Assembly (NCBI GenBank): GCA_963833575.1
Contig: CAWHXY010000004.1
Location: forward strand, 928,001 to 992,000
Direction: 5' to 3'
From: Candidatus Bathyarchaeota archaeon
Lineage (GTDB): Archaea; Thermoproteota; Bathyarchaeia; Bathyarchaeales; Bathycorpusculaceae
DNA: 64,000 bases
Part shown: in pieces, positions 5,303 to 16,917 of the stretch
How positions within the stretch are numbered: the stretch's first letter is position 1
Layout: each line of letters begins with the position of its first letter
Program-made: the position numbers and the translations under genes
Notes under the pieces: generated by a model
What the model saw: the letters and a program-made list of their open reading frames with translations, nothing else
Databases searched by the model: none
What the model was told of the DNA's origin: nothing

Positions 5303-5547
5303 ACCTGCAAACAAAACAAACCCCGAATCAAAAAAACAATCTAAAACACAAAGAACAAGATCTACTCTAATTCCCCCCGATATTTTTGACCATAGGTCTG
5401 TTTCTTCTTGACCAAAAGCTCAACTTGAATATGCGTGAAGTTTGGGGTGCATTATGTCAAAAATCCCATGGTTTTATCTAAAATTTGTACATAAAGCTGA
5501 TAAACCCCTTCTGCAAGTACATGGATTATCACGCGGGAAGGGACCAA

Positions 5548-7029
5548 ATGGGCTGTGGTATCTTTGGCGCTATAAACTATGAAAATCAACCTGTGTTTCC
5601 ATATGTTTACTGGGGGTTACGCGCTCAAAATCATCGAGGGCATCAATCGCACGGGTTTCTTACTTTTAGTGATAAAGAATTTTTTACGTATAAAAATTTA
5701 GATTTAGTTCCTAAAGTGAAAAATGATGCCATAAAAGAATGGTTTGGTCGTCTTCCAGGATCAATAGGTATTGGCAACGTACGATATACAACGTCAGGCA
5801 AATGTGATGACGTCTCCATAATTGAGGGTACACAGCCAGTTGTGGCTTCGGTAAATGGCATAAAACTTGCTCTTTCATTTAACGGCAACATTGTTAACAC
5901 TTTGCCGCTGAGAAAAGAAATGTTTGCAAATTTCCCAGACTTTACCTACAGCTGCGATTCAGACATCGTATGCAACAAAATGCTACTAGCCCTAAAACAA
6001 GGCAAAGACCTGCCGTCTGCAGCTAAAATTGTTATGGAAAGTCTAGATGGGGCATTTAGCGTAACAGGTATAACTGGAGAAGGCGACTTTTTCGCTTTCA
6101 AAGATCCACACGGAATAAAACCCTTGTGTGCAGGTCATGACCCAGCAGGCAAAACCTACGCTTTCTCCTCTGAAACCGTAAGTTTAGACATGAACAGTTT
6201 TGTAAGAGACTTTGAATTAAAACCAGGCGAACTAGTAACCGTTTCACAAGACGGATTCAAACGCACCCAACTTATAGAAAACCCGCGCCCAGCATTTTGC
6301 GCCTTCGAATATGCCTATTTTGCGAGACCTGACTCAAGATTTAACGGAAAATACGTTTATGAAATCCGAGAAGACTTCGGAAGAAACATAGTAAAAGAAA
6401 ACCCTCAAATTGTAAAAGAAAGCGACATCATTCTTTCAGTGCCTGAAACCGGCGATGACTCAGCAATGGGCGTCCACGAAGCGTCTGGTTTAAGATGGGA
6501 ACGCGCGTCAAGACGGCACCGCTATGTTACTGAAAGAGCTTTCATACTTCTAAACGTCGAACGCTTTTCCACCATTGATAAGAAAATTAATATTTTAGGC
6601 TCAAAAGTAGATGGAAAACGAGTTATCATCACCGAAGACAGCATAGTCAGAGGAGACACAACCAAAGTAATCATTGATAAACTTCGCAAAGCAGGAGCCA
6701 AAAGTGTTTACGTATTCGTTACTTTCCCACGCATCATTGGCCCATGCTTCTACGGCATCGACATGTCAACCTACGGTCAACTTGTCGGCTCACGGCATGA
6801 TGCAGAAGGAATCGCAAAAATCATAGGTGCAGACGGCGTATGCTACCAATCCATTGAAGCATTAATAGGAGCCACGGGTCAAACAAAAGATCAACTCTGC
6901 CTAGCCTGCATAAACGGAGAATACCCAACGCCATGTGCACAAAAAATGGCGGACGTAATGAAACAAAGATTTGTGAATGGGTATCAAGAAACAACAAGAA
7001 TTTATGAGTCTGAAGAAGTGCAGCCATAA
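5548..7029 (+). CDS. purF: Amidophosphoribosyltransferase, Fe-S type
   Basis: CGIFG Ntn nucleophile, NHRGHQS, GNVRYTTSG, FNGNIVN, CAFEYAYFARPDS, EDSIVRGDT, PCFYGIDM, CLAC. ATG 5548 follows GGAAGGGA; ATG 5521 is an alternative. Confidence 0.96.
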   Translation: MGCGIFGAINYENQPVFPYVYWGLRAQNHRGHQSHGFLTFSDKEFFTYKNLDLVPKVKNDAIKEWFGRLPGSIGIGNVRYTTSGKCDDVSIIEGTQPVVASVNGIKLALSFNGNIVNTLPLRKEMFANFPDFTYSCDSDIVCNKMLLALKQGKDLPSAAKIVMESLDGAFSVTGITGEGDFFAFKDPHGIKPLCAGHDPAGKTYAFSSETVSLDMNSFVRDFELKPGELVTVSQDGFKRTQLIENPRPAFCAFEYAYFARPDSRFNGKYVYEIREDFGRNIVKENPQIVKESDIILSVPETGDDSAMGVHEASGLRWERASRRHRYVTERAFILLNVERFSTIDKKINILGSKVDGKRVIITEDSIVRGDTTKVIIDKLRKAGAKSVYVFVTFPRIIGPCFYGIDMSTYGQLVGSRHDAEGIAKIIGADGVCYQSIEALIGATGQTKDQLCLACINGEYPTPCAQKMADVMKQRFVNGYQETTRIYESEEVQP

Positions 7030-7093: not shown

Positions 7094-8509
7094 ATGGAAA
7101 AAATTGGTGTGCTGGTTGTTTCTTATGGTGCAAGAGAAGTCGCTATGGTTGACGCACTTCTACAAAGCAAAAAATATCAAGTGGAACTCTACATCGCCGA
7201 CAAACAACGAAATCCTTTCAACGCTGAAAAAGCCACCAAACACGTTGTCATTCCAAATCTAGATGTTGAAGAAATCTGCAAATTCGCGCAGGCAAACAGG
7301 GACAAAATAAGTTTTGCGTTAGTCGGATCAGAAAAACCCATTATTGAAGGTATCCGCGACCAAGTAGAAAAACGCACTGGCATACCTGTTATTTGTCCAA
7401 AGCAACAATACGCTATCGAAGTCAGCAAGGTAGAGCAGCGAGTGCTTTTTGACGAAATCGCGCCAGAAGCTAATCCACGCTTCAAAGTTTTCAATCCATC
7501 CGATTACAAAGATGGTTCAGACGTTAAAACAGACGTTTACCATTGGCTAGATGAACTAGATAACCAAGCTGCAGTCAAGCCCGATAAGCCTGCATTGGGT
7601 AAAGGTGTCGGTGTCTGGGGAGATCACTTTGCCAATAGGGAACAACTTTTTGAGCATTTCATGTCTAACTTTCATTATGGCTCAGTTATCATAGAAGAAA
7701 AAATTGATGGCGAAGAATCAAGTTTCATGGCTTTCTGCGACGGTAAACACTTTTCGCCACTTCCAGATACACGTGACTACAAGCGCGCCTTGGACGATGA
7801 CAAAGGACCAAATACTGGCGGAATGGGCTCTTACAAAGATTCTGGCGACAAATTACCATTTTTAACCGCGATGGAACGCGAACAAGAGCTTTTGTTGGCT
7901 AACAAGATTTTCACGGGTTGGAGCTACAAAATCGAAGATGACTCAGCTCTCAGAGGCGTGCCGCTTTATCTTGCTTTTATGCATACTGGTAAAGGAATTA
8001 AAGTTCTTGAGAACAATAGTCGTCCTGGTGACCCAGAAATAATTAATCTTCTTGCTTTAATCAAAGGTGACTTTGTTGATTTATGTTTCAGGATGATTGA
8101 AGGAAGCTTGGGGATTGTTGAGTTGGAAAAGGCTTCTTCTGTTTTAACTTACAAAGTTCCGCCTGATTACGGTGGCTACGCAGACGTATTTCCAAACCAA
8201 GTGGATCAAGCATCTCTTAACTCGCCAGTTGACCTTTCAAAAGCTTATGCATTAACCAAAAAATATGGCAATAAAATCCGAGTTTACCCTGGCTCAATGG
8301 AAGTTAGATACGGCAAAAACTATGCTTTAAAATCCCGTGCAGTTGGAATTTTAGGCATTGGCGACAGCATTGAGGAAGCACGACAAATCAGCCAAGAAGG
8401 TGCTACGGCAATCACGGGCGGCGGCCTATGGAATCGAACAGATATTGCTACAAAGCAGCATATTGCCAAAGCAGTTAGTCACATGGAAAATTTGAGGTGT
8501 AGAGCATGA
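7094..8509 (+). CDS. purD: Phosphoribosylamine-glycine ligase (divergent archaeal type)
   Basis: GKGV, IEEKIDGEESS, DYKRALDDDKGPNTGGMGSY, ENNSRPGDPE. Confidence 0.93.
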   Translation: MEKIGVLVVSYGAREVAMVDALLQSKKYQVELYIADKQRNPFNAEKATKHVVIPNLDVEEICKFAQANRDKISFALVGSEKPIIEGIRDQVEKRTGIPVICPKQQYAIEVSKVEQRVLFDEIAPEANPRFKVFNPSDYKDGSDVKTDVYHWLDELDNQAAVKPDKPALGKGVGVWGDHFANREQLFEHFMSNFHYGSVIIEEKIDGEESSFMAFCDGKHFSPLPDTRDYKRALDDDKGPNTGGMGSYKDSGDKLPFLTAMEREQELLLANKIFTGWSYKIEDDSALRGVPLYLAFMHTGKGIKVLENNSRPGDPEIINLLALIKGDFVDLCFRMIEGSLGIVELEKASSVLTYKVPPDYGGYADVFPNQVDQASLNSPVDLSKAYALTKKYGNKIRVYPGSMEVRYGKNYALKSRAVGILGIGDSIEEARQISQEGATAITGGGLWNRTDIATKQHIAKAVSHMENLRCRA

Positions 8510-9552
8510 AACGTGTTTTTATATCTGATTGTGAAGGGCCAATCTCAAAAAATGATAATGCTTTCGAGTTAGCGTCACATTTTATTCCAAACGGAGACAA
8601 ACTTTTCGCTAACATAAGCAAGTACGACGATGTGCTGGCGGATGTTCTGCAGAAACCAGATTACTCAGCGGGCAGCACATTGAAGCTAATTTTGCCATTC
8701 TTCAAAGCATACGATATCACGGACAAACAGATGGAAGACTTTTCAGAAAAAAACATTGTTTTAGTTGCTAACAGCAAAAACACTCTACGCCATTTACAAG
8801 CTATAGCTAATGCTTTCATCATTAGCACCAGCTATGAACATTACATCAAAGCTTTATGTAAAACACTCAATTTTCCATACAAAAACACGTATTGCACCAA
8901 AATATGCCTAGACAAATACGCTATTACATCAAGAGAAAAGGAACGCCTAAAACAAATTGCGCATGAAATCTCCAAGATGCGCTTAATCGATATACCTCAA
9001 GGAGCAAAATCAGTAAATGCCTTTTCAAACAGCGAACAAGCGATAATTCAGCGTTTAGACGAAATTTTCTGGAATGAAATACCCAAAATGACCGTTGGCA
9101 AAGTAATGACCGATGTGGTTACCGTAGGGGGGAAACAAAAAGCCGAAGCAATTCGTGATGCAGTTAAACGCGTAGGTGCAAGCTTAGAGGATGTAATGTA
9201 TGTGGGAGATAGCATAACCGACGTCGAAGCCTTCAAGCTGGTTCGAACCAACGGCGGCTTAACAGTCTCTTTCAATGGTAACAGTTATGCCGTTAAGAAT
9301 GCTGAAGTAGCGATCTTATCTGAAAACAATGTTGTTACTGGCGTGATTGCTGATTTGTTCTGCAGGTTTGGAAAAGAAAAAACAATCAACACCCTCCGAT
9401 CTTGGGGATTTGAGGCGCTTGAAAACAGCGGCGCAATTGATGTTTCGCCTAAAGCAAAATTAGTAACACCCCAAAATATGGAAATGTTGGTAAAAGAAAG
9501 TAGCGAATTTAGAAAAAATGTGCGCGGCGTAGCCATCGGGAGACTCGGATAA
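8506..9552 (+). CDS. HAD-superfamily hydrolase, EhaR/COG4030-like
   Basis: Motif I FISDCEGP, motif II IISTS, motif III Lys (GKQKAEA), motif IV YVGDSITD, FNGN. The N-terminus DCEGPISKNDNAFEL recalls proteins annotated as Eha subunit R. Confidence 0.82.
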   Translation: MKRVFISDCEGPISKNDNAFELASHFIPNGDKLFANISKYDDVLADVLQKPDYSAGSTLKLILPFFKAYDITDKQMEDFSEKNIVLVANSKNTLRHLQAIANAFIISTSYEHYIKALCKTLNFPYKNTYCTKICLDKYAITSREKERLKQIAHEISKMRLIDIPQGAKSVNAFSNSEQAIIQRLDEIFWNEIPKMTVGKVMTDVVTVGGKQKAEAIRDAVKRVGASLEDVMYVGDSITDVEAFKLVRTNGGLTVSFNGNSYAVKNAEVAILSENNVVTGVIADLFCRFGKEKTINTLRSWGFEALENSGAIDVSPKAKLVTPQNMEMLVKESSEFRKNVRGVAIGRLG

Positions 9553-10461
9553 GTGGCAAAAGCAGAGATAGAGGACACTTACGCTGAAGCCTTTACCGGA
9601 ATATTTTGTCGAATAATAGTAACTGCAGATGATGAGGAAATCTTGCGTAAGGCGGCTGAAGATTCAACAGCAACACCATCCGTTGTAATTGGCAGAACAG
9701 AAGGCGGAGTTGAAAAATACCTCACTCCCAAAGAAACTCCAGACAAACGTTACGGTGCATTATTGCAGTTCTGGGGAGAAATAAACCCTAAAAAAACTTT
9801 TGCTGAGTCACTCAAAAAGTTTGAAACCGAACTTTCTTACCGTATCAGACAAGACATCCTAGTCAAGCCCTTCACTGCCGTATTTGATTCTCTACCCACT
9901 GCTGAAGGTAAAATTGATATGATGGAAACTGTTGGGCACTGCGGCGACGGCTTTGAATGGGTTGAAAAGCGCGATGGAAGAGAAGTTATCGTCGTGCCTT
10001 TGATGGTTCCTGACTTTGTCATCGAGCATTACTTAGGCTACAGTCGCGGTGTTATGGGTGGGAACTTTTGGATAATTTGCAAAACAAAACAAGCCCTAAA
10101 ACAAGCAGGAAAAAAAGCCTTAGCCGCAATCCACACAGTTGAAGGCGTGGTTACGCCGTTTGATGTGTGTTCCGCGGGCTCCAAACCAGAAACCCATTTT
10201 CCCAAAATTGGTCCAACAACCAACCATCTCTATTGCCCATCGCTAAAGGAACGTTTAGGTAAAGACTCGCTTGTTCCCGAAGGCGTAGGATATATAGCCG
10301 AAATAGTTTACGACGGCATCTCCTTACAAGCCATTAAGCAAGCAACAAAAGCAGGAATAGAAGCCGTTTTGAATATTAATGGTGTTGTGAAAGTTTCCGC
10401 TGGCAACTACGGCGGCAAACTAGGCGAATACAAAATCCCGTTACTGGAGTTGTTTTCATGA
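9553..10461 (+). CDS. ftr: Formylmethanofuran:tetrahydromethanopterin formyltransferase family protein (Ftr paralogue, EhaS-like)
   Basis: IEDTYAEAF, ETPDKR, RIRQDIL, GDGFE, GVMGGNF, SAGSK, PTTNHLYCPSLK, EIVYDG, VSAGNYGGKLG. Confidence 0.92.
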   Translation: MAKAEIEDTYAEAFTGIFCRIIVTADDEEILRKAAEDSTATPSVVIGRTEGGVEKYLTPKETPDKRYGALLQFWGEINPKKTFAESLKKFETELSYRIRQDILVKPFTAVFDSLPTAEGKIDMMETVGHCGDGFEWVEKRDGREVIVVPLMVPDFVIEHYLGYSRGVMGGNFWIICKTKQALKQAGKKALAAIHTVEGVVTPFDVCSAGSKPETHFPKIGPTTNHLYCPSLKERLGKDSLVPEGVGYIAEIVYDGISLQAIKQATKAGIEAVLNINGVVKVSAGNYGGKLGEYKIPLLELFS

Positions 10462-11372
10462 CTAAATTTGATGTCGTTGGTTTTGGCGCACTTAATGTTG
10501 ATGTTATTTTTAAAGTTGATAGACTCGCAAAAGCAGAAGAGGAAAGCTTCGTCGAAGATTACACTGAAGCCTGCGGTGGCTCAGCTGCAAATACAGTAGT
10601 CGCCTTGGCCAGGCTTGGCTGCAAGACAGGGTTCATAGGAAAAGTAGCTGATGATCGAGAAGGTAAACTTCAAATTAACTGTTTTGACAATGAAGGTGTT
10701 GACACCAGCGGAATCATTCAGGCAAAAAAGGGCAAAAGCGGTTCAGTAATGGGGTTCGTGGACAAGAAAGGCGCAAGAACCCTCTACATCAACTCTGGCG
10801 TCAACGACACAATCGAGCCGCGCGAAATAGATTATGGTTATGTTTCTCAAACAAAATTTATACATTACTCGTCTTTTGTTGGGGAAAAATCTCTTCGTGC
10901 CCAGAAAAAGCTCCTAGCTGCTTTGCCTAACACTATAAAAATAAGTTTTGACCCTGGATCGGTCTATGCACAGAAGGGTTTTACAGCCATAGAACCAATT
11001 ATTCGAAGTACTCATGTTTTAATGCCTAATGTCCTTGAACTCGAACTTTTAACTGGGGAAACGGATTACCGTAAAGGCGCCGATTTAATGATTGATGCGG
11101 GCGTAAAAATTGTGGCAGTTAAGCTTGGCGAAAAAGGTAGCTACGTTACTGACGGTCAAGACCAGCTTACAATAGAACCTTTCAAAGTTAAAGCGGTCGA
11201 CACAACTGGTGCTGGCGATGCTTTCTGTGCAGGCTTCCTTTACGGTTTAATTAACAAGAAAAGCCTCTTTGAATGTGGGCAGATTGGGAATTTTGTAGCT
11301 TCCAGAAGCGTGATGGCGTTGGGTGCCCGTGCAGGCTTGCCCTATGTTAAGGATTTAGCATTTCTTTACTAG
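10458..11372 (+). CDS. PfkB/ribokinase-family (nucleoside or sugar) kinase, EhaT-like
   Basis: GGSAANTVVALARLG, FDPG, PNVLE, VKLGEKGS, DTTGAGDAFCAGF. Confidence 0.93.
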   Translation: MTKFDVVGFGALNVDVIFKVDRLAKAEEESFVEDYTEACGGSAANTVVALARLGCKTGFIGKVADDREGKLQINCFDNEGVDTSGIIQAKKGKSGSVMGFVDKKGARTLYINSGVNDTIEPREIDYGYVSQTKFIHYSSFVGEKSLRAQKKLLAALPNTIKISFDPGSVYAQKGFTAIEPIIRSTHVLMPNVLELELLTGETDYRKGADLMIDAGVKIVAVKLGEKGSYVTDGQDQLTIEPFKVKAVDTTGAGDAFCAGFLYGLINKKSLFECGQIGNFVASRSVMALGARAGLPYVKDLAFLY

Positions 11373-12173
11373 ATTATCAATTATGCTTTGGAAGATTAGT
11401 TTTCCGTCGCCATACTGTAGCATCTGATGTTCGCGAGTCCAGTTGGGTTGTTGCCACCAGTACATTGATCTCTCTGGGTGAGGCATTAAACCAAAAATGT
11501 TTCCTTCCCTGTTACATATTCCAGCAATATCATAAGTGGAGCCGTTTGGATTAATTGGATAACTGCCGTTTGCAATGTTGCCGTTTTTGTCGCAGTATCG
11601 AAAAACAACCATATCGTTATCGATTAATTTTGCCAGCATCTCTTCTTCTTTTTCCTTAGGAAACAATAACCTGCCTTCTCCATGGGCAATAGGCATCCCT
11701 AACACTTTGCCAACTGGAATTTTATTCGTAAAAATGCTTTTTCCTTTATTTTCATGCTTAAGATAAACCCATTGGCACTTGAAGCCCGATGGCTCATTTG
11801 TAGTCAATGTTACTTCTGGATAGGTGCTTACTCCTTCCAAACCTGGAAGTAAACCGTATTCAACAAGGATTTGGAAGCCGTTGCAAATGCCCAGAATTGG
11901 TCTGCCTTCATCGATGAAAGTTTCCATTTCTTTTCCTAATTTGACTGAGAGGTGTCTTGCAAAAATCACGCCGGAACGCACATAATCGCCGAACGAGAAG
12001 CCGCCTGGAAAAACCAGCACTTGATAGTCCAGCAGGTTTTTGCGTTTCATTAACTCGTTAACATGTAAAGTTTCTGCTTTAACACCTATTTCTTGAAATG
12101 CCCGTTGGGTTTCGGCGTCACAGTTGGTACCGCCGACACGCATAACGCAGACTTTGATTTCTTCTTGGTTCAT
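11355..12173 (-). CDS. purQ: FGAM synthase glutaminase subunit
   Basis: GTNCD, PGGFSFGDY, GICNGFQIL, AHGEG, GLMPHPER; start ATG 12173 overlaps the purL stop (TAATG). Confidence 0.96.
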   Translation of the reverse strand: MNQEEIKVCVMRVGGTNCDAETQRAFQEIGVKAETLHVNELMKRKNLLDYQVLVFPGGFSFGDYVRSGVIFARHLSVKLGKEMETFIDEGRPILGICNGFQILVEYGLLPGLEGVSTYPEVTLTTNEPSGFKCQWVYLKHENKGKSIFTNKIPVGKVLGMPIAHGEGRLLFPKEKEEEMLAKLIDNDMVVFRYCDKNGNIANGSYPINPNGSTYDIAGICNREGNIFGLMPHPERSMYWWQQPNWTREHQMLQYGDGKLIFQSIIDNLVKKC

Positions 12174-14554
12174 TAGGATTCCCCGCTTAACGTTTTCTTC
12201 CAAGCATGCCGCAACTCGACAAGTGAAGCATCGACCACCGTTTTCTGATTTAATCCGTGAATGGCCAGTTTCTCATTTTTGGTTACTTTCCCAATTTGGG
12301 CACACATTTTACCCTTCATCAAAGCTTCAAATTCTTTTCTGTCTTGTTCCGCCACTTCCATAAGGAAACGGCTATTTGACTCCGAAAATAAGATAAAGTC
12401 ATTCCGTTCTAGTGGTTTGCCAGGCACTTTTGATAAATCCAGTTCTAACCCATAGCCGCCTGCAAATGCCATCTCCGCTGCAGCTACTGCTAATCCTCCT
12501 TCTGAGAGGTCGTGGCATGATTTGACTAAACCAGAATCGATGGCTTTGGTTACGGCTTTGAATGTGCGTTTGGCTTTTGCTCCTTTGACTTTGGGTACGT
12601 TTGCGCCTAAGTAGCCTTTGAGTTTGTAGTATTCTGAGCCGCCAAGTTCGTTGAAGGTTTCTCCGATAATGTAGAGTAGGTTGCCTGGTGCTTTCAAATC
12701 CATGGATGTGGTGTATTGAAGATTTGGAATCACGCCAACTGCTGTAATAAGAAGAGTCGGTGTGATTGGACCTAGAGGAGACTCGTTATAGAGACTGTCT
12801 TTTCCAGAGATGAATGGCGTCCTAAACGCTGTTGCAAAATCGTAGCAGGCTTCACAAGCTTTAACCAGTGAACCCAATCGCTCTGGTTTCTCAGGATTTC
12901 CCCATGTAAAATTATCTAGCAGAGCAATTCTTCTACCGCCAACAGCAATGTTATTTCTCACTGCCTCGTCAATTGCTGAAGCCGCCATCCAATAAGCATC
13001 AATCTTACCGTAATTCGGGTTCATGCCGCAAGAAATCGTTAAACCTTTCCATGAATCATCAAGGGGTTTTAGAACAGCTGCATCGTTTGGCCCTGCATAT
13101 TCTCCCTGAAGAGGCTTGAGTGTGGTGTTTCCTTTTACTTCGTGGTCGTATGTTCGGATGACGCTTTCTTTGCTGGCAATGTTTGGCGAAGAAAGAAGCT
13201 GCATTAAGCTTTCAGTTAGGTTCTGCGGTTCAGGGAACTCTGGTTCAATGAAACTTTGTTTTTCAATGGTTGCGATTTTCATGCTTTTGCATGGATTGAA
13301 CAGAAATGCCATTTCCATGTCTGCAACCTTTTCGCCGTTAAAACTGAGTTGCAAACGGCGTTCGATTGTCAGTTTGCCAATTGCAGTGGCTTGAACATCT
13401 TCCTTCTCAAAAACTGCCATAACTTGCTCGAGATTTTCCGGTGGAACTGTTATAAGCATTCTCTCTTGTGATTCAGAAATGTAAATTTCCCATGGAGCCA
13501 AGCCCTGATGCTTCAAAGGCACCTTGCCAAGGTCAATTGCAACTCCGCAGTCAAATCTCTCGCCAGTTTCTCCGACTGCTGAAGATAAGCCTCCTCCGCC
13601 AAGGTCAGTTGTCGCCGACGCCAATTGTAAATCGCGGATTTCTATTATTGCCCGCTTCACTTTCTCTTCTTCGATTGGGTCGGCGATTTGTACGGCAGGA
13701 CGGGATATTTCTTCTGATTTCTCAGTTAATTCGGCTGAGGCAAATGTTACGCCGTGGATTCCGTCACGACCAGTTTTTCCTCCTGCTACGACGATTATGT
13801 GTTCTGGTTTAGCATTTTTTGTGAATTTGCTTAATGGTAAAATCCCGATGCATCCGCAATGTACAGTGACGTTGCCTGTGTAGCTTTCGTCAAAATATAT
13901 TGCTCCGTTAACAGTTGGGATGCCCATGTTATTTCCATACGCGCTAATTCCCGCGGTGACGCCCATGTAAACGTATTTTGGATGTTTGACTCCTGCGGGA
14001 AGCTTGTTATAATCATAGTCTAATGGTCCGAAGCCTAAAACATCCGTGCAGGCGATTGGATCAGCCCATACACCAAGGATATCTCGGATGACGCCTCCGA
14101 CCCCTGTAGCTGCCCCACCGAAAGGCTCAACTGCAGACGGATGATTGTGAGTTTCAACTTTGGCTGCTATTCCATAGCCTTTGTCAAATTTTACGATCCC
14201 TGCGTTATCTTCAAAAACGCTAAAGCACCAAGGGGCTTTGATTTCTTTGGTGGCTTTTTGAATGTAGGTTTTGAATAGGCTGTCGATTTCTTTGCCGTCA
14301 ATTTGGATTTTTCCTTTGAATGTTTTGTGGTAGCAGTGTTCGGACCACGTTTGACTAATGGTTTGCAGTTCCAAGTCTGTTGGGTTTCTGCCTTCAGATT
14401 TGAAGTAGGTTTGAATGCTTTTCATTTCTTCTAAGCTTAAGCCCAAAGCTAGTTCATTGCTGATTTCAATTAGCTGTTGGTCAGTTGCTGTGGTCAGTGC
14501 AGCTTCGTAAAGTGAGTAGTTTGCTTCTCGTTGGATGTAGAGGTTAGCGTTCAT
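12173..14554 (-). CDS. purL: FGAM synthase synthetase subunit
   Basis: WSEHCYHK, KVETHNHPSAVEPFGGAATGVGGVIRD, DLGGGG, SESQERM, HDLSEGGL. Confidence 0.97.
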   Translation of the reverse strand: MNANLYIQREANYSLYEAALTTATDQQLIEISNELALGLSLEEMKSIQTYFKSEGRNPTDLELQTISQTWSEHCYHKTFKGKIQIDGKEIDSLFKTYIQKATKEIKAPWCFSVFEDNAGIVKFDKGYGIAAKVETHNHPSAVEPFGGAATGVGGVIRDILGVWADPIACTDVLGFGPLDYDYNKLPAGVKHPKYVYMGVTAGISAYGNNMGIPTVNGAIYFDESYTGNVTVHCGCIGILPLSKFTKNAKPEHIIVVAGGKTGRDGIHGVTFASAELTEKSEEISRPAVQIADPIEEEKVKRAIIEIRDLQLASATTDLGGGGLSSAVGETGERFDCGVAIDLGKVPLKHQGLAPWEIYISESQERMLITVPPENLEQVMAVFEKEDVQATAIGKLTIERRLQLSFNGEKVADMEMAFLFNPCKSMKIATIEKQSFIEPEFPEPQNLTESLMQLLSSPNIASKESVIRTYDHEVKGNTTLKPLQGEYAGPNDAAVLKPLDDSWKGLTISCGMNPNYGKIDAYWMAASAIDEAVRNNIAVGGRRIALLDNFTWGNPEKPERLGSLVKACEACYDFATAFRTPFISGKDSLYNESPLGPITPTLLITAVGVIPNLQYTTSMDLKAPGNLLYIIGETFNELGGSEYYKLKGYLGANVPKVKGAKAKRTFKAVTKAIDSGLVKSCHDLSEGGLAVAAAEMAFAGGYGLELDLSKVPGKPLERNDFILFSESNSRFLMEVAEQDRKEFEALMKGKMCAQIGKVTKNEKLAIHGLNQKTVVDASLVELRHAWKKTLSGES

Positions 14555-14802
14555 TTATGCTCCTCAACATTTATTGTGTAATTATCTTTGGTTGGGTTTG
14601 CCAAAAGGCGCTTGCTCATGTCTTCCGCTTTTGCTTTGGCTTCGGCAATTGTTGAGGCATCAAGAGTGACTGTGTAAACTTTGCTAACGTCTACGCTTTC
14701 GACTTTGTATCCGAGTTCTTTGAGTAAATGGGATGTTGTTTCTCCTTCAGGATTGCTGTGGCCTGGCTTTAAGCTGACCTCTATTTTCGCTAGGTATTTC
14801 AT
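14551..14802 (-). CDS. purS: FGAM synthase subunit PurS
   Basis: LKPGHSNPEG and LLANP motifs; 83 aa from ATG 14802; overlaps the purL start. Confidence 0.9.
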   Translation of the reverse strand: MKYLAKIEVSLKPGHSNPEGETTSHLLKELGYKVESVDVSKVYTVTLDASTIAEAKAKAEDMSKRLLANPTKDNYTINVEEHK

Positions 14803-14860
14803 AAAGCCTTTAAATCGAGGTTTAGGATTTAAAGACTTTCGCCATAAAGAATGCAAAACT

Positions 14861-15940
14861 TTACGTTAAAACCAATTTTTTGTTTTGGAACTTTATTTCA
14901 ACCGTTTGTTTGTCTGTTACTTTTCCTATTATCTCAGGCTTTAAGTCGCCTTGCTCAAGCGTATTAATTGCTTTGTCGGTCTCTTTTTTGTCTACGATTA
15001 TGCCAAAACCCCAACCCATATTGAATGTTTTGAACATTTCTTCATCTGTGATTGTAAAGCCGAGTTCAGCTGCTGTTTTTTGGATCAAGCCAAAAATCGG
15101 TTGTGGCTTAAAATTGTTGAATTCGAAGCCTATTCCAGGCGAGACACTAACAAGGTTATTGAATTTCATGTAAGCGTCGCCTGTTATGTGTACAGCTCCT
15201 TTGACTTTCACTTCACTGGCTAGTTTGAGTAAGGGTTTAACATAGATTTTAGTGGGTTCTAATGCTTCCAAAACGATTTCTCTATCCAATCCTTTGGGGA
15301 TATCGTTGAGTTCGTATTTTCCTCCCCATTCTTTAAAGAGGATTTTTCTTGCCATTGTTATGCCGTTGCTATGCAATCCGCTGCTCGCTAAACCTATAAT
15401 TGGGTCACCTGGTTTGATGTTTTCTCCAGTTATGATTCTTTGTTTTTCAACTTGACCGACTGAGGCGACGACCATGTCAAACCCAACCTTTTCGGTTACC
15501 CCTTTAATTATTTCAGCTACGTCGCCTGTTTCTCCATTAGTAACTGGACATTCAGATTCAGCTGCGCCTTGAATAATTCCTTTCAGCCACTCTTTTACAA
15601 GCAGTGGGTTACTTTCTTGTGCATGTATATTGTCTGCGATTGCAAGTGGCTTAGCTCCTGATCGAATTACATCATTAACGACCATAGCAACTGCATCAAT
15701 GCCGATTGTGTCATATTTCCTGGCTAATTGTGCTAAGAGAACTTTGGTGCCTACTCCTTCAATTTCAAGATCCAAAAACAAATTTTCTGCAATTGGAAAA
15801 ATATTGCCATAAGGTAAATGCATGATGCCGCCATAAAGGCTGTGCTTGTATGTTTCTTTCAGGTTCTGCAGCGCCTTTTTTGATTCAACACGTTGTTTTC
15901 GGTTAACGCCTGCATCAGTATAAGTAAAGTTTTTGGGCAT
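14861..15940 (-). CDS. purM: AIR synthetase
   Basis: YTDAGV, EGVGTK, DAVAMVVND, GETG, SSGLHSNG, HITG, EMFKTFNMGWG. Confidence 0.96.
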   Translation of the reverse strand: MPKNFTYTDAGVNRKQRVESKKALQNLKETYKHSLYGGIMHLPYGNIFPIAENLFLDLEIEGVGTKVLLAQLARKYDTIGIDAVAMVVNDVIRSGAKPLAIADNIHAQESNPLLVKEWLKGIIQGAAESECPVTNGETGDVAEIIKGVTEKVGFDMVVASVGQVEKQRIITGENIKPGDPIIGLASSGLHSNGITMARKILFKEWGGKYELNDIPKGLDREIVLEALEPTKIYVKPLLKLASEVKVKGAVHITGDAYMKFNNLVSVSPGIGFEFNNFKPQPIFGLIQKTAAELGFTITDEEMFKTFNMGWGFGIIVDKKETDKAINTLEQGDLKPEIIGKVTDKQTVEIKFQNKKLVLT

Positions 15941-16080: not shown

Positions 16081-16917
16081 TTGCCCAATCCCAAATATCA
16101 TATCTACTTAGAATATTCTGAGCTAGATAAGTCTGGAGTGCGCTTCAATATTTCTCAAGAGGAACTTAATCGAACCTTCGCCACACCCTTCAATGCCAAC
16201 CAACCCTTTTGGTTCGCTGGTAGACTTCTCAACCCCATCAAAGCCTCTAAAGTTGTACTCTTCTGGTCGTATGAAACAGCCGATAAACTAAAGCTGCCTA
16301 ACCAAGAAAGCATTGTAGCTGTCAAAGACAAAAAATATCTAATCGAAAGCATTATCAAAGGCAAAGTCAAAGGGGCGTACCTTTGCACAGAAAAATTCTT
16401 AGAGACACCAGAGAGAGCTACTGTACCCACTCAATCGGTAGAGGCTTCTTTGGGAAATACCCGGCGCAGAATTTTCGTTGTTTCTGGCACTGACGATGTA
16501 ATGAAACAAGCTCTTACTGGGTCTTTGACCAAACTTTTGCTATCGCCGGTTATAATTCATGAAGAGCCTGGTTTAGGCAGAAAAATAATAGAACATTTCA
16601 CAGACTACAATGACGTGAAATTTGCCCTAGTTTTGCTCTCCCCAGATGATCATGTTTACTCTAGGGCTGATCCATTCACAAAAAGCAAGCTAAAGCCTCG
16701 TCAAGATGTTATTTTCCTACTTGGCTTCCTGATAGGCGCGCTCGGCAAAGGCAACGTACTTGTATTCTTCAGAGAACACGAAAACTTTGAAATCCCTCTT
16801 GATTTTGAAGGAATAAAATTCACAGCATTCGACGACCGTGACAGTTGGAAACTTGCACTAATACGGGAACTAACTAAAAGCGGGTACACAGTCGACGGAA
16901 AAAGAATTCTAAAATAA
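16081..16917 (+). CDS. Protein with a C-terminal TIR-like domain (COG4271/CAP12-PycTIR type), active site degenerate
   Basis: IFVVSGTD...PVIIHEEPGLGRKIIEHF...FALVLLSPDD...RQDVIFLLGFLIGALG...EIPLDFEG matches the family pattern; N-terminal ~125 aa unassigned. Confidence 0.8.
   Translation: MPNPKYHIYLEYSELDKSGVRFNISQEELNRTFATPFNANQPFWFAGRLLNPIKASKVVLFWSYETADKLKLPNQESIVAVKDKKYLIESIIKGKVKGAYLCTEKFLETPERATVPTQSVEASLGNTRRRIFVVSGTDDVMKQALTGSLTKLLLSPVIIHEEPGLGRKIIEHFTDYNDVKFALVLLSPDDHVYSRADPFTKSKLKPRQDVIFLLGFLIGALGKGNVLVFFREHENFEIPLDFEGIKFTAFDDRDSWKLALIRELTKSGYTVDGKRILK

Follow-up and report, generated by a model that had tools for sequence, protein, structure and literature searches.

A HAD hydrolase, an Ftr paralogue and a PfkB kinase as a candidate module for the third step of purine synthesis in Bathyarchaeia

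Three genes in a bathyarchaeal purine operon

The stretch of DNA analysed here (64,000 nucleotides, called the window below) comes from contig 4 of a Candidatus Bathyarchaeota archaeon genome and carries, directly after the purine synthesis gene purD, three genes packed without gaps on the plus strand. The first encodes a HAD-IB-type hydrolase of the 'EhaR'/AF1437 family (8506..9552, 348 aa), recognised by Pfam and NCBIfam HAD models and by a match to the solved structure 1Y8A. The second encodes an 'EhaS'-like paralogue of the formyltransferase Ftr, with FTR and FTR_C domains, which is called Ftr2 below (9553..10461, 302 aa), and the third an 'EhaT'-like kinase of the PfkB family (10458..11372, 304 aa). 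As read from the open reading frames (ORFs), the stop codon of purD (8509) lies within the HAD gene, which begins at 8506, Ftr2 starts one base past the HAD stop, and the PfkB and Ftr2 genes overlap by four bases. A preliminary description of this DNA had reported the three ORFs and quoted HAD and PfkB motifs from them, and the translations confirm both, with family matches far above chance. The HAD protein is a putative 5'-phosphatase of glycinamide ribonucleotide (GAR), Ftr2 a candidate formyltransferase for the conversion of GAR to formylglycinamide ribonucleotide (FGAR), and the kinase a putative formylglycinamide riboside 5'-kinase. We consider it very probable that the HAD and PfkB proteins, far from being hydrogenase subunits, are catalytic partners in a non-canonical module for GAR formylation.

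Upstream of the trio, on the plus strand, lie purF (amidophosphoribosyltransferase; 5485..7029), the first gene of this pur operon, which has GATase_7 and GATase_6 domains and is kept upstream of purD in related loci, and purD itself (GAR synthetase; 7094..8509; GARS_A 1.5e-31, GARS_N 8.8e-15, TIGR00877 purD E 2.4e-65). On the other side a minus-strand block (11355-15940) runs towards the trio. It holds purQ (11355..12203), convergent with the kinase gene and assigned by GATase_5 (6.3e-71) and synteny; purL (12173..14554), an ORF with 69-91% identity in related loci that encodes the FGAR amidotransferase, the consumer of FGAR; and purS (14551..14856) and purM (14861..15940), both called from their ORFs and synteny.

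The folate-dependent PurN and the formate- and ATP-dependent PurT serve the same pathway step and fill the same slot after purD as the module; each is one enzyme, whereas the module has three genes and, in the window, a formyltransferase of the Ftr fold. In the host genome (2.75 Mb, 94% complete) a profile search found no PF00551 (PurN-type) gene and no PurT, the top ATP-grasp match reaching 47 bits against a cut-off of 502. The genome encodes a canonical Ftr elsewhere, besides the second copy in the window, as well as FwdC of formylmethanofuran dehydrogenase, so formylmethanofuran is plausibly available to the host as a formyl donor.

According to the available part of Brown 2011, GAR transformylase was not found in two Archaeoglobi, four Methanobacteriales (printed as 'Methanomicrobiales') and Methanopyrus, organisms which make their own purines and yet lack PurN and PurT. 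The portion of Chadwick 2022 that is available describes a divergent 'Ftr2' clade in Archaeoglobales, Methanopyrus, Methanothermobacter and some anaerobic methanotrophic archaea, and states separately that Archaeoglobales and Methanobacteriales are without PurN and PurT. As far as these excerpts go, the archaeal groups without PurN or PurT are the same groups that hold Ftr2, which we count in favour of the module. For the third purine step in these groups, the HAD-Ftr2-PfkB module is the strongest candidate.

Distribution of the module and exchange of its formyltransferase

Related loci were collected with a 14-sequence HAD alignment as query, and the 80 best, all from Bathyarchaeia, were taken. 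Gene content was compared over a class sample of 201 genomes and a phylum sample of 251, with Ftr2 called at no less than 50% identity to the window's copy. The 201 genomes of the class sample are mutually related, non-independent members of one archaeal class; the counts are descriptive and carry no statistical test, which has to be set against any mechanism built on them.

The order HAD-Ftr2-PfkB is kept in 72 of the 80 best related loci, and 47 of those 72 have the full purF-purD-HAD-Ftr2-PfkB / purQLSM layout; five other loci are cut by a contig end and three are split. In the split loci (L075, L080, L084) purF-purD-HAD is followed by unrelated genes, and Ftr2-PfkB stands beside purQLSM elsewhere in the genome. 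HAD was found in 85 of the 201 class genomes and Ftr2 in 79, all of which also have HAD (79/79), adjacent in 74; Ftr2 adjoins PfkB in 71 of the 79. A kinase match is present in 80 of the 85 HAD genomes, and in the other five (G114, G293, G319, G368, G384) the locus is cut at a contig end. Kinase matches without HAD numbered six in the class sample, all of them weak paralogues at 29-34% identity. In the phylum sample 31 genomes have HAD, all of this class (0/216 in other classes); bacterial members of the HAD family were seen in cluster names and in the Atlas, as leads only. HAD, Ftr2 and PfkB are an obligate, co-located unit. The preliminary description had staked its proposal on the three genes occurring together across genomes, and they do.

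The three protein families are those of EhaR, EhaS and EhaT, encoded by the last genes of the eha operon in Methanothermobacter, and among the 5298 homologues of the HAD protein the JGI name 'energy-converting hydrogenase A subunit R' is found. Such names, together with co-transcription with ehaA-R in Methanothermobacter (Kaster 2011, in the part available), would favour reading HAD and PfkB as subunits R and T of an energy-converting hydrogenase. The same part of that paper records that EhaS and EhaT were first annotated as formyltransferase and ribokinase (Kaster 2011). Unlike EhaR-S-T, however, the trio lies within a pur cluster in all 80 best related loci, with no locus outside one and no hydrogenase gene nearby; the sole Complex1_49kDa-type gene of the host genome is on contig 7, and the proteins have soluble enzyme folds. 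On the grounds of the pur-cluster placement and the separate contig, hydrogenase-subunit identity was rejected and has, in our view, next to no chance of being right. The earlier suspicion that 'hydrogenase subunit R/T' is a positional misannotation is borne out by the same two observations. We know of no function shown for EhaR, EhaS or EhaT.

The distribution of PurN and PurT is almost mutually exclusive with that of the module. PF00551 was found in 87 of the 201 class genomes, only five of which also have HAD, and PurT-like genes, called at E <=1e-60 and scoring 224-303 bits, all under the curated cut-off, in ten genomes with no HAD overlap; 24 genomes have none of the three. In family f1 every genome has HAD (31/31) and none PF00551 (0/31), in f51 the figures are 0/46 and 43/46, and in f62 0/36 and 24/36, while in f6 the module occurs in two genomes, a PurT-like gene in six and PF00551 in one. 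A genome of f62 (G409) has a canonical PurN directly after purD, the slot filled by the module in the window. The module takes the place of PurN and PurT.

These counts bear on whether HAD and PfkB might serve an unrelated salvage function, HAD as a general nucleotidase and the kinase as a ribose or nucleoside kinase feeding phosphoribosyl pyrophosphate, both standing in the pur operon for co-regulation only. Such jobs are common for HADs and PfkB kinases, and the top named matches of the kinase are ribokinases. However, in f51, which relies on PF00551, these queries found neither orthologue (0/46 for both); f62 gave 0/36 for HAD and 2/36 weak paralogues of the kinase, and none of the ten PurT-like genomes has HAD. 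The kinase also falls far under the ribokinase cut-off and is without the Lys of the ribokinase GGK motif (see below). General ribose or nucleoside salvage is very improbable, and was rejected on the grounds that orthologues were not found in class genomes relying on PF00551 or PurT-like genes.

Four of the five genomes in which HAD and PF00551 overlap have another formyltransferase, denoted PurN*, at the module. In G274 and G270 the order is purF-purD-PurN*-HAD-PfkB on one strand, with no Ftr2 in the slot; in G074 and G042 purF-purD-PurN* stands at one site and HAD and PfkB close together at another. PurN* reaches 53-75 bits against TIGR00639 (cut-off 150), has two insertions and an altered N-terminal loop, and in every case seen is beside HAD or fused to it (for example L099 6458-7210 (-), L100 9362-10201 (-) and residues 1-262 of P0193). 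In P0193 (599 aa) a PurN*-type domain, 46-53% identical to PurN* and with GAR transformylases as its top solved matches (E 3e-10), is fused to the same HAD. P0199 (899 aa) and P0214 (961 aa) join HAD to an ATP-grasp domain whose named matches are limited to PurT models and cover a short stretch (NF006766 E 2.5e-8). In one genome, G398, Ftr2 and PfkB share a single 620-aa frame with no stop at the junction (L106 6758-8548; G398:C1, about 302757-304547), possibly a natural fusion and possibly a sequencing error. Two candidates for longer fused forms were set aside as uninformative: P0271 is Ftr1-like (559 aa, 37% identity), and the C-terminal half of P0301 is without a recognisable domain and looks like a mis-called frame.

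HAD associates with three unrelated types of formyl-transfer catalyst (Ftr2, PurN* and PurT-like), and the kinase accompanies both types seen in genomes. HAD and PfkB are kept with whichever formyltransferase fills the slot and are not passengers. Their constancy, while the fold and donor of the formyltransferase change, implicates a shared acceptor substrate rather than the donor. The preliminary description had reasoned that the partners would be needed if an Ftr-derived pocket could not take a 5'-phosphate. As stated, this is not supported, since in G274 and G270 the formyltransferase beside these same two partners is of the PurN type; HAD is also fused to PurN-like and PurT-like domains, so the need for partners is not specific to the Ftr fold. 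Its argument that gene order follows reaction order is likewise weak, as the PurN* version runs formyltransferase-HAD-PfkB.

Several neighbouring genes were recorded in passing. Two metagenome contigs (L111 10001-12892, L112 10001-12910) encode proteins of 960-970 aa in which a divergent PurT-like ATP-grasp domain is fused to an EhaR-type HAD; upstream of the L112 fusion stand genes for succinyl-CoA ligase, for a regulator of the Lrp type and for a class II (D/K/N-type) tRNA synthetase, and downstream of it one for a DNA methylase. In the three genomes with a split module (for example L080 11945-12748 (-), L075 4604-5407 (-)) a KaiC-type ATPase gene follows purF-purD-HAD, and the same stretch also holds genes for a small regulator that includes a DUF5752 part and for a fructose-1,6-bisphosphatase of archaeal type. 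In the window, just past purM, a 278-aa protein (16081-16917 (+)) has a CAP12/Pycsar-effector-type TIR domain (PF10137, E 1.6e-22), and this gene beside the purine cluster is possibly a defence gene.

The three proteins and a possible nucleoside-level route

Both lobes of Ftr2 are matched at full length (PF01913 FTR 1.6e-43, PF02741 FTR_C 4.5e-53), and its NF002554 score of 335.5 bits lies above the cut-off of 297. Against the fhcD equivalog TIGR03119 it scores 239.3 bits, under the cut-off of 292.6, which does not point to orthology with the characterised enzyme of the one-carbon (C1) pathway. Both domains also align over their full length with Ftr1, the formylmethanofuran:tetrahydromethanopterin (H4MPT) formyltransferase (1FTR, 1M5H, 1M5S; E 4e-53 to 1M5H). 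Unlike Ftr1, Ftr2 is a separate paralogue that never occurs without HAD in the class sample. In the host genome the PF01913 scores are 184 bits for the canonical Ftr and 150 bits for Ftr2, and identities are bimodal, Ftr2 orthologues being at least 51% identical to one another and only 36-42% to Ftr1. PurN* keeps the catalytic residues of its family (N-L-H-P and L-D-E-G-P in 5/5). The canonical SGxG(S/T)N loop is lost in the PurN-type relatives that join the module, which have S-G-R-D-(A/R/E)-A in 5/5, as against S-G-(R/S)-G-(S/T)-N in 5/5 canonical copies from the same class.

The kinase matches PfkB (PF00294) with E 2.4e-53 over residues 5-295 and has the motifs G40-G-S-A-A-N45 and D248-T-T-G-A-G-D254-A-F. 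Residues N13, D15, N191, E194 and G-A-G-D254 are each at least 97% conserved among 80 module kinases. It scores 176.8 bits against the ribokinase equivalog TIGR02152, well short of the cut-off of 299.65, and its GGSAAN aligns to GGKGANQ of the solved ribokinases 3RY7, 11BL and 1VM7. This signature is common to Ftr2-linked and PurN*-linked kinases despite 35-39% identity, and is kept in 97% or more of the 80. By its sequence the kinase is a member of the PfkB family but not a ribokinase proper.

The HAD translation contains D8-C-E10-G-P, S107-T-S109-Y, K212 and G234-D-S-I-T-D239, and its family matches are Hydrolase_3 (E 2.7e-8), Hydrolase (2.9e-7) and TIGR01488 HAD-IB (9.7e-9, below the HAD-IB cut-off). 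The motif I nucleophile D8 is present in 101 of 116 diverse relatives and in 15/15 Bathyarchaeia copies. Motif I reads D-x-E and not the usual D-x-D, with E10 in 105 of the 116; in motif II S107 is found in 107 and S109 in 103, and in motifs III and IV K212 in 115, D235 in 106 and D239 in all 116. Of 86 locus copies 82 have all five motifs, among them each copy linked to PurN*. The cap residues D17, D41, D42 and Y53 are conserved, as is a C-terminal tail, S-x3-R-x3-R-G (S332, R336, R340, G341). An AlphaFold2 model (mean predicted local distance difference test 89.9) combines a Rossmann-like core and a helical cap that follows motif I. It is closest to 1Y8A (AF1437; template modelling score 0.82/0.91; sequence match E 2.7e-31), followed by SerB/PSP phosphoserine phosphatases, ThrH and MtnX. 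The protein is a member of the HAD superfamily with an unusual Glu in motif I. At 348 aa the window's copy falls 12 residues short of most close homologues (360 aa), seemingly at a poorly predicted loop, residues 302-313.

The pattern of conservation speaks to the idea that HAD and PfkB are mainly structural, serving as scaffold or regulators in a channelling complex of PurD, the formyltransferase and PurL in which their chemistry is dispensable. The domain fusions and the gene overlap, with the translational coupling this implies, suggest that the module proteins associate physically, and the conserved C-terminal tail of HAD would suit such a role. Pure scaffolds, however, usually lose catalytic residues, whereas here wide sequence divergence has left in place the nucleophile, the Lys and the acidic motif of HAD as well as the N-x-x-E and the catalytic Asp of the kinase. 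We consider a mainly structural function improbable.

What we favour, while holding it to be somewhat less than probable, is a detour by which the module dephosphorylates, formylates and rephosphorylates its substrate. HAD would remove the 5'-phosphate of GAR to give glycinamide riboside; Ftr2, or a divergent PurN in some relatives, would formylate the free amine of the riboside; and the PfkB kinase would add back the 5'-phosphate with ATP, giving FGAR for PurL. The donor for Ftr2 would probably be formylmethanofuran or formyl-H4MPT. The net cost would be one ATP per formylation, the same as for PurT, and would render formylation irreversible even where the donor's formyl group is weakly activated, as that of formylmethanofuran is. 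Such a detour would explain the obligatory presence of a phosphatase and a ribose-5'-type kinase, both following acceptor rather than donor chemistry. It would also explain the divergence of all formyltransferases that join HAD and PfkB, and the existence of fusions that join the formyltransferase to HAD in some cases and to the kinase in another. The conserved catalytic residues, the non-ribokinase pocket signature and the lost canonical PurN loop are compatible with it.

A number of points weigh against this detour, beside the relatedness of the sampled genomes. The substrates of all three enzymes are ones that we infer, and to our knowledge glycinamide riboside is known nowhere as an on-pathway intermediate. 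In a literature search that covered few subscription journals, no paper was found on the module or on a riboside route, and formylglycinamide riboside was mentioned only in a paper on human PFAS deficiency. In HAD, Glu (E10) takes the place of the general acid/base Asp of phosphatases; enolase-phosphatase E1 also has D-x-E, and activity is not precluded by the Glu. The nucleophile Asp is missing in 15 of the 116 relatives, all distant (for example P0213, P0232, P0241 and P0267), and the family may include non-catalytic or re-purposed branches. Judged from the model, the structural neighbours of HAD are of the small-substrate type IB branch of true phosphatases and are not nucleotidases. Two of the arguments for a riboside depend on roles that we presume, as they were not confirmed in the literature. 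One is that the loop of E. coli PurN holds the GAR 5'-phosphate, in which case the Asp in the PurN* loop would disfavour phosphate. The other is that the Lys of ribokinases touches ribose at its free anomeric side, in which case loss of this Lys would fit a substituted C1, as in a riboside. Lastly, around the two PurT-like-HAD fusion loci neither PfkB nor any pur gene lies within 10 kb, so the kinase is either not always needed or located elsewhere. The energetic rationale is weaker, too, where the partner is PurT-like and already consumes ATP itself.

Some of the same points would suit a module that formylates GAR while HAD and PfkB do another catalytic job, with no riboside-level intermediate on the main path. 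They might make or recycle a co-substrate or a form of the formyl carrier shared by the divergent formyltransferases, or remove or rescue a side product. Obligate co-occurrence and kept catalytic residues do not reveal the molecule on which the partners act, the closest solved HADs have small phosphoesters of the amino-acid type as substrates, and the PurT-like-HAD fusions are without a nearby kinase. The partners nevertheless stay constant across formyltransferase folds that use different donors, which points to the acceptor. The kinase moreover keeps the N/D pair that starts the sugar pocket in the aligned solved ribokinases, and the canonical N-terminal loop is changed in PurN*. We consider a separate job of this kind unlikely, though it deserves to be taken seriously.

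The fusions of HAD to formyltransferases would also fit a phosphate held beside the formylation site. In such a phosphoryl relay the HAD Asp would take the 5'-phosphate of GAR and return it to the formylated riboside; the kinase would only prime the system or rescue it after hydrolysis of the phospho-enzyme, and ATP would not be spent at each turn. ThrH, one of the structural neighbours of HAD, has been reported to move phosphate from phosphoserine to homoserine, and a relay would explain the HAD fusions that have no adjacent kinase. There is no direct evidence for it, however, and the kinase is kept as strictly as HAD (80/85, with contig ends cutting the other five loci), which exceeds what one would expect of a rescue function. 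A relay seems to us about as improbable as a mainly structural role.

Related systems and significance

The best structural relative of HAD, AF1437 of Archaeoglobus fulgidus (1Y8A), comes from structural genomics and shares the family, the fold and D-x-E-G-P with the window's HAD at 27% identity; it is not known to bind any ligand or to have an assigned function. The chemistry of the detour, by contrast, has parallels elsewhere. In the riboflavin pathway HAD phosphatases act on a ribitylamino-pyrimidine 5'-phosphate and riboflavin kinase acts later. As the detour would, this route combines HAD dephosphorylation, work on the free alcohol and a final kinase, but it is an analogy only, as it belongs to another pathway, uses another kinase family and has several steps in between. 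The thiamine pathway also drops and restores a phosphate. Aminoimidazole riboside kinase of Salmonella is a PfkB enzyme that converts the riboside of a purine intermediate to the ribotide. It was compared with the window's kinase by description only, and differs in being a salvage enzyme with no phosphatase or formyltransferase partner.

Taken more widely, the third step of de novo purine synthesis would run at the nucleoside level in many archaea and some bacteria, by way of a dedicated phosphatase for GAR, a formyltransferase specific for the riboside and descended from Ftr, PurN or PurT, and a kinase for formylglycinamide riboside; together they would act as an ATP-driven ratchet for weak donors such as formylmethanofuran. 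We offer this generalisation still more tentatively than the detour itself. If true, such a ratchet would fill the GAR transformylase gap that has been open since 2011 in Archaeoglobi, Methanobacteriales and Methanopyrus. Eha hydrogenase reportedly refills the methanogenic C1 cycle, and the position of ehaR, ehaS and ehaT on the operon of a C1-refilling hydrogenase would be understandable if formylmethanofuran feeds purine synthesis. The ratchet, if it exists, would thus explain why these three genes ride on the operon of a formylmethanofuran-refilling hydrogenase.

The novelty here lies in a new combination of three genes, all from known superfamilies, that probably serves a known pathway step. 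A module of the PurN* type may work in E. coli, which has folates and no methanofuran. If the detour is true, it would provide the first nucleoside-level intermediate in the core purine pathway and three new enzyme activities, and the 'hydrogenase subunit R/S/T' labels on thousands of database entries would be corrected. It would also tie the making of purines directly to the one-carbon pool of methanofuran and H4MPT.

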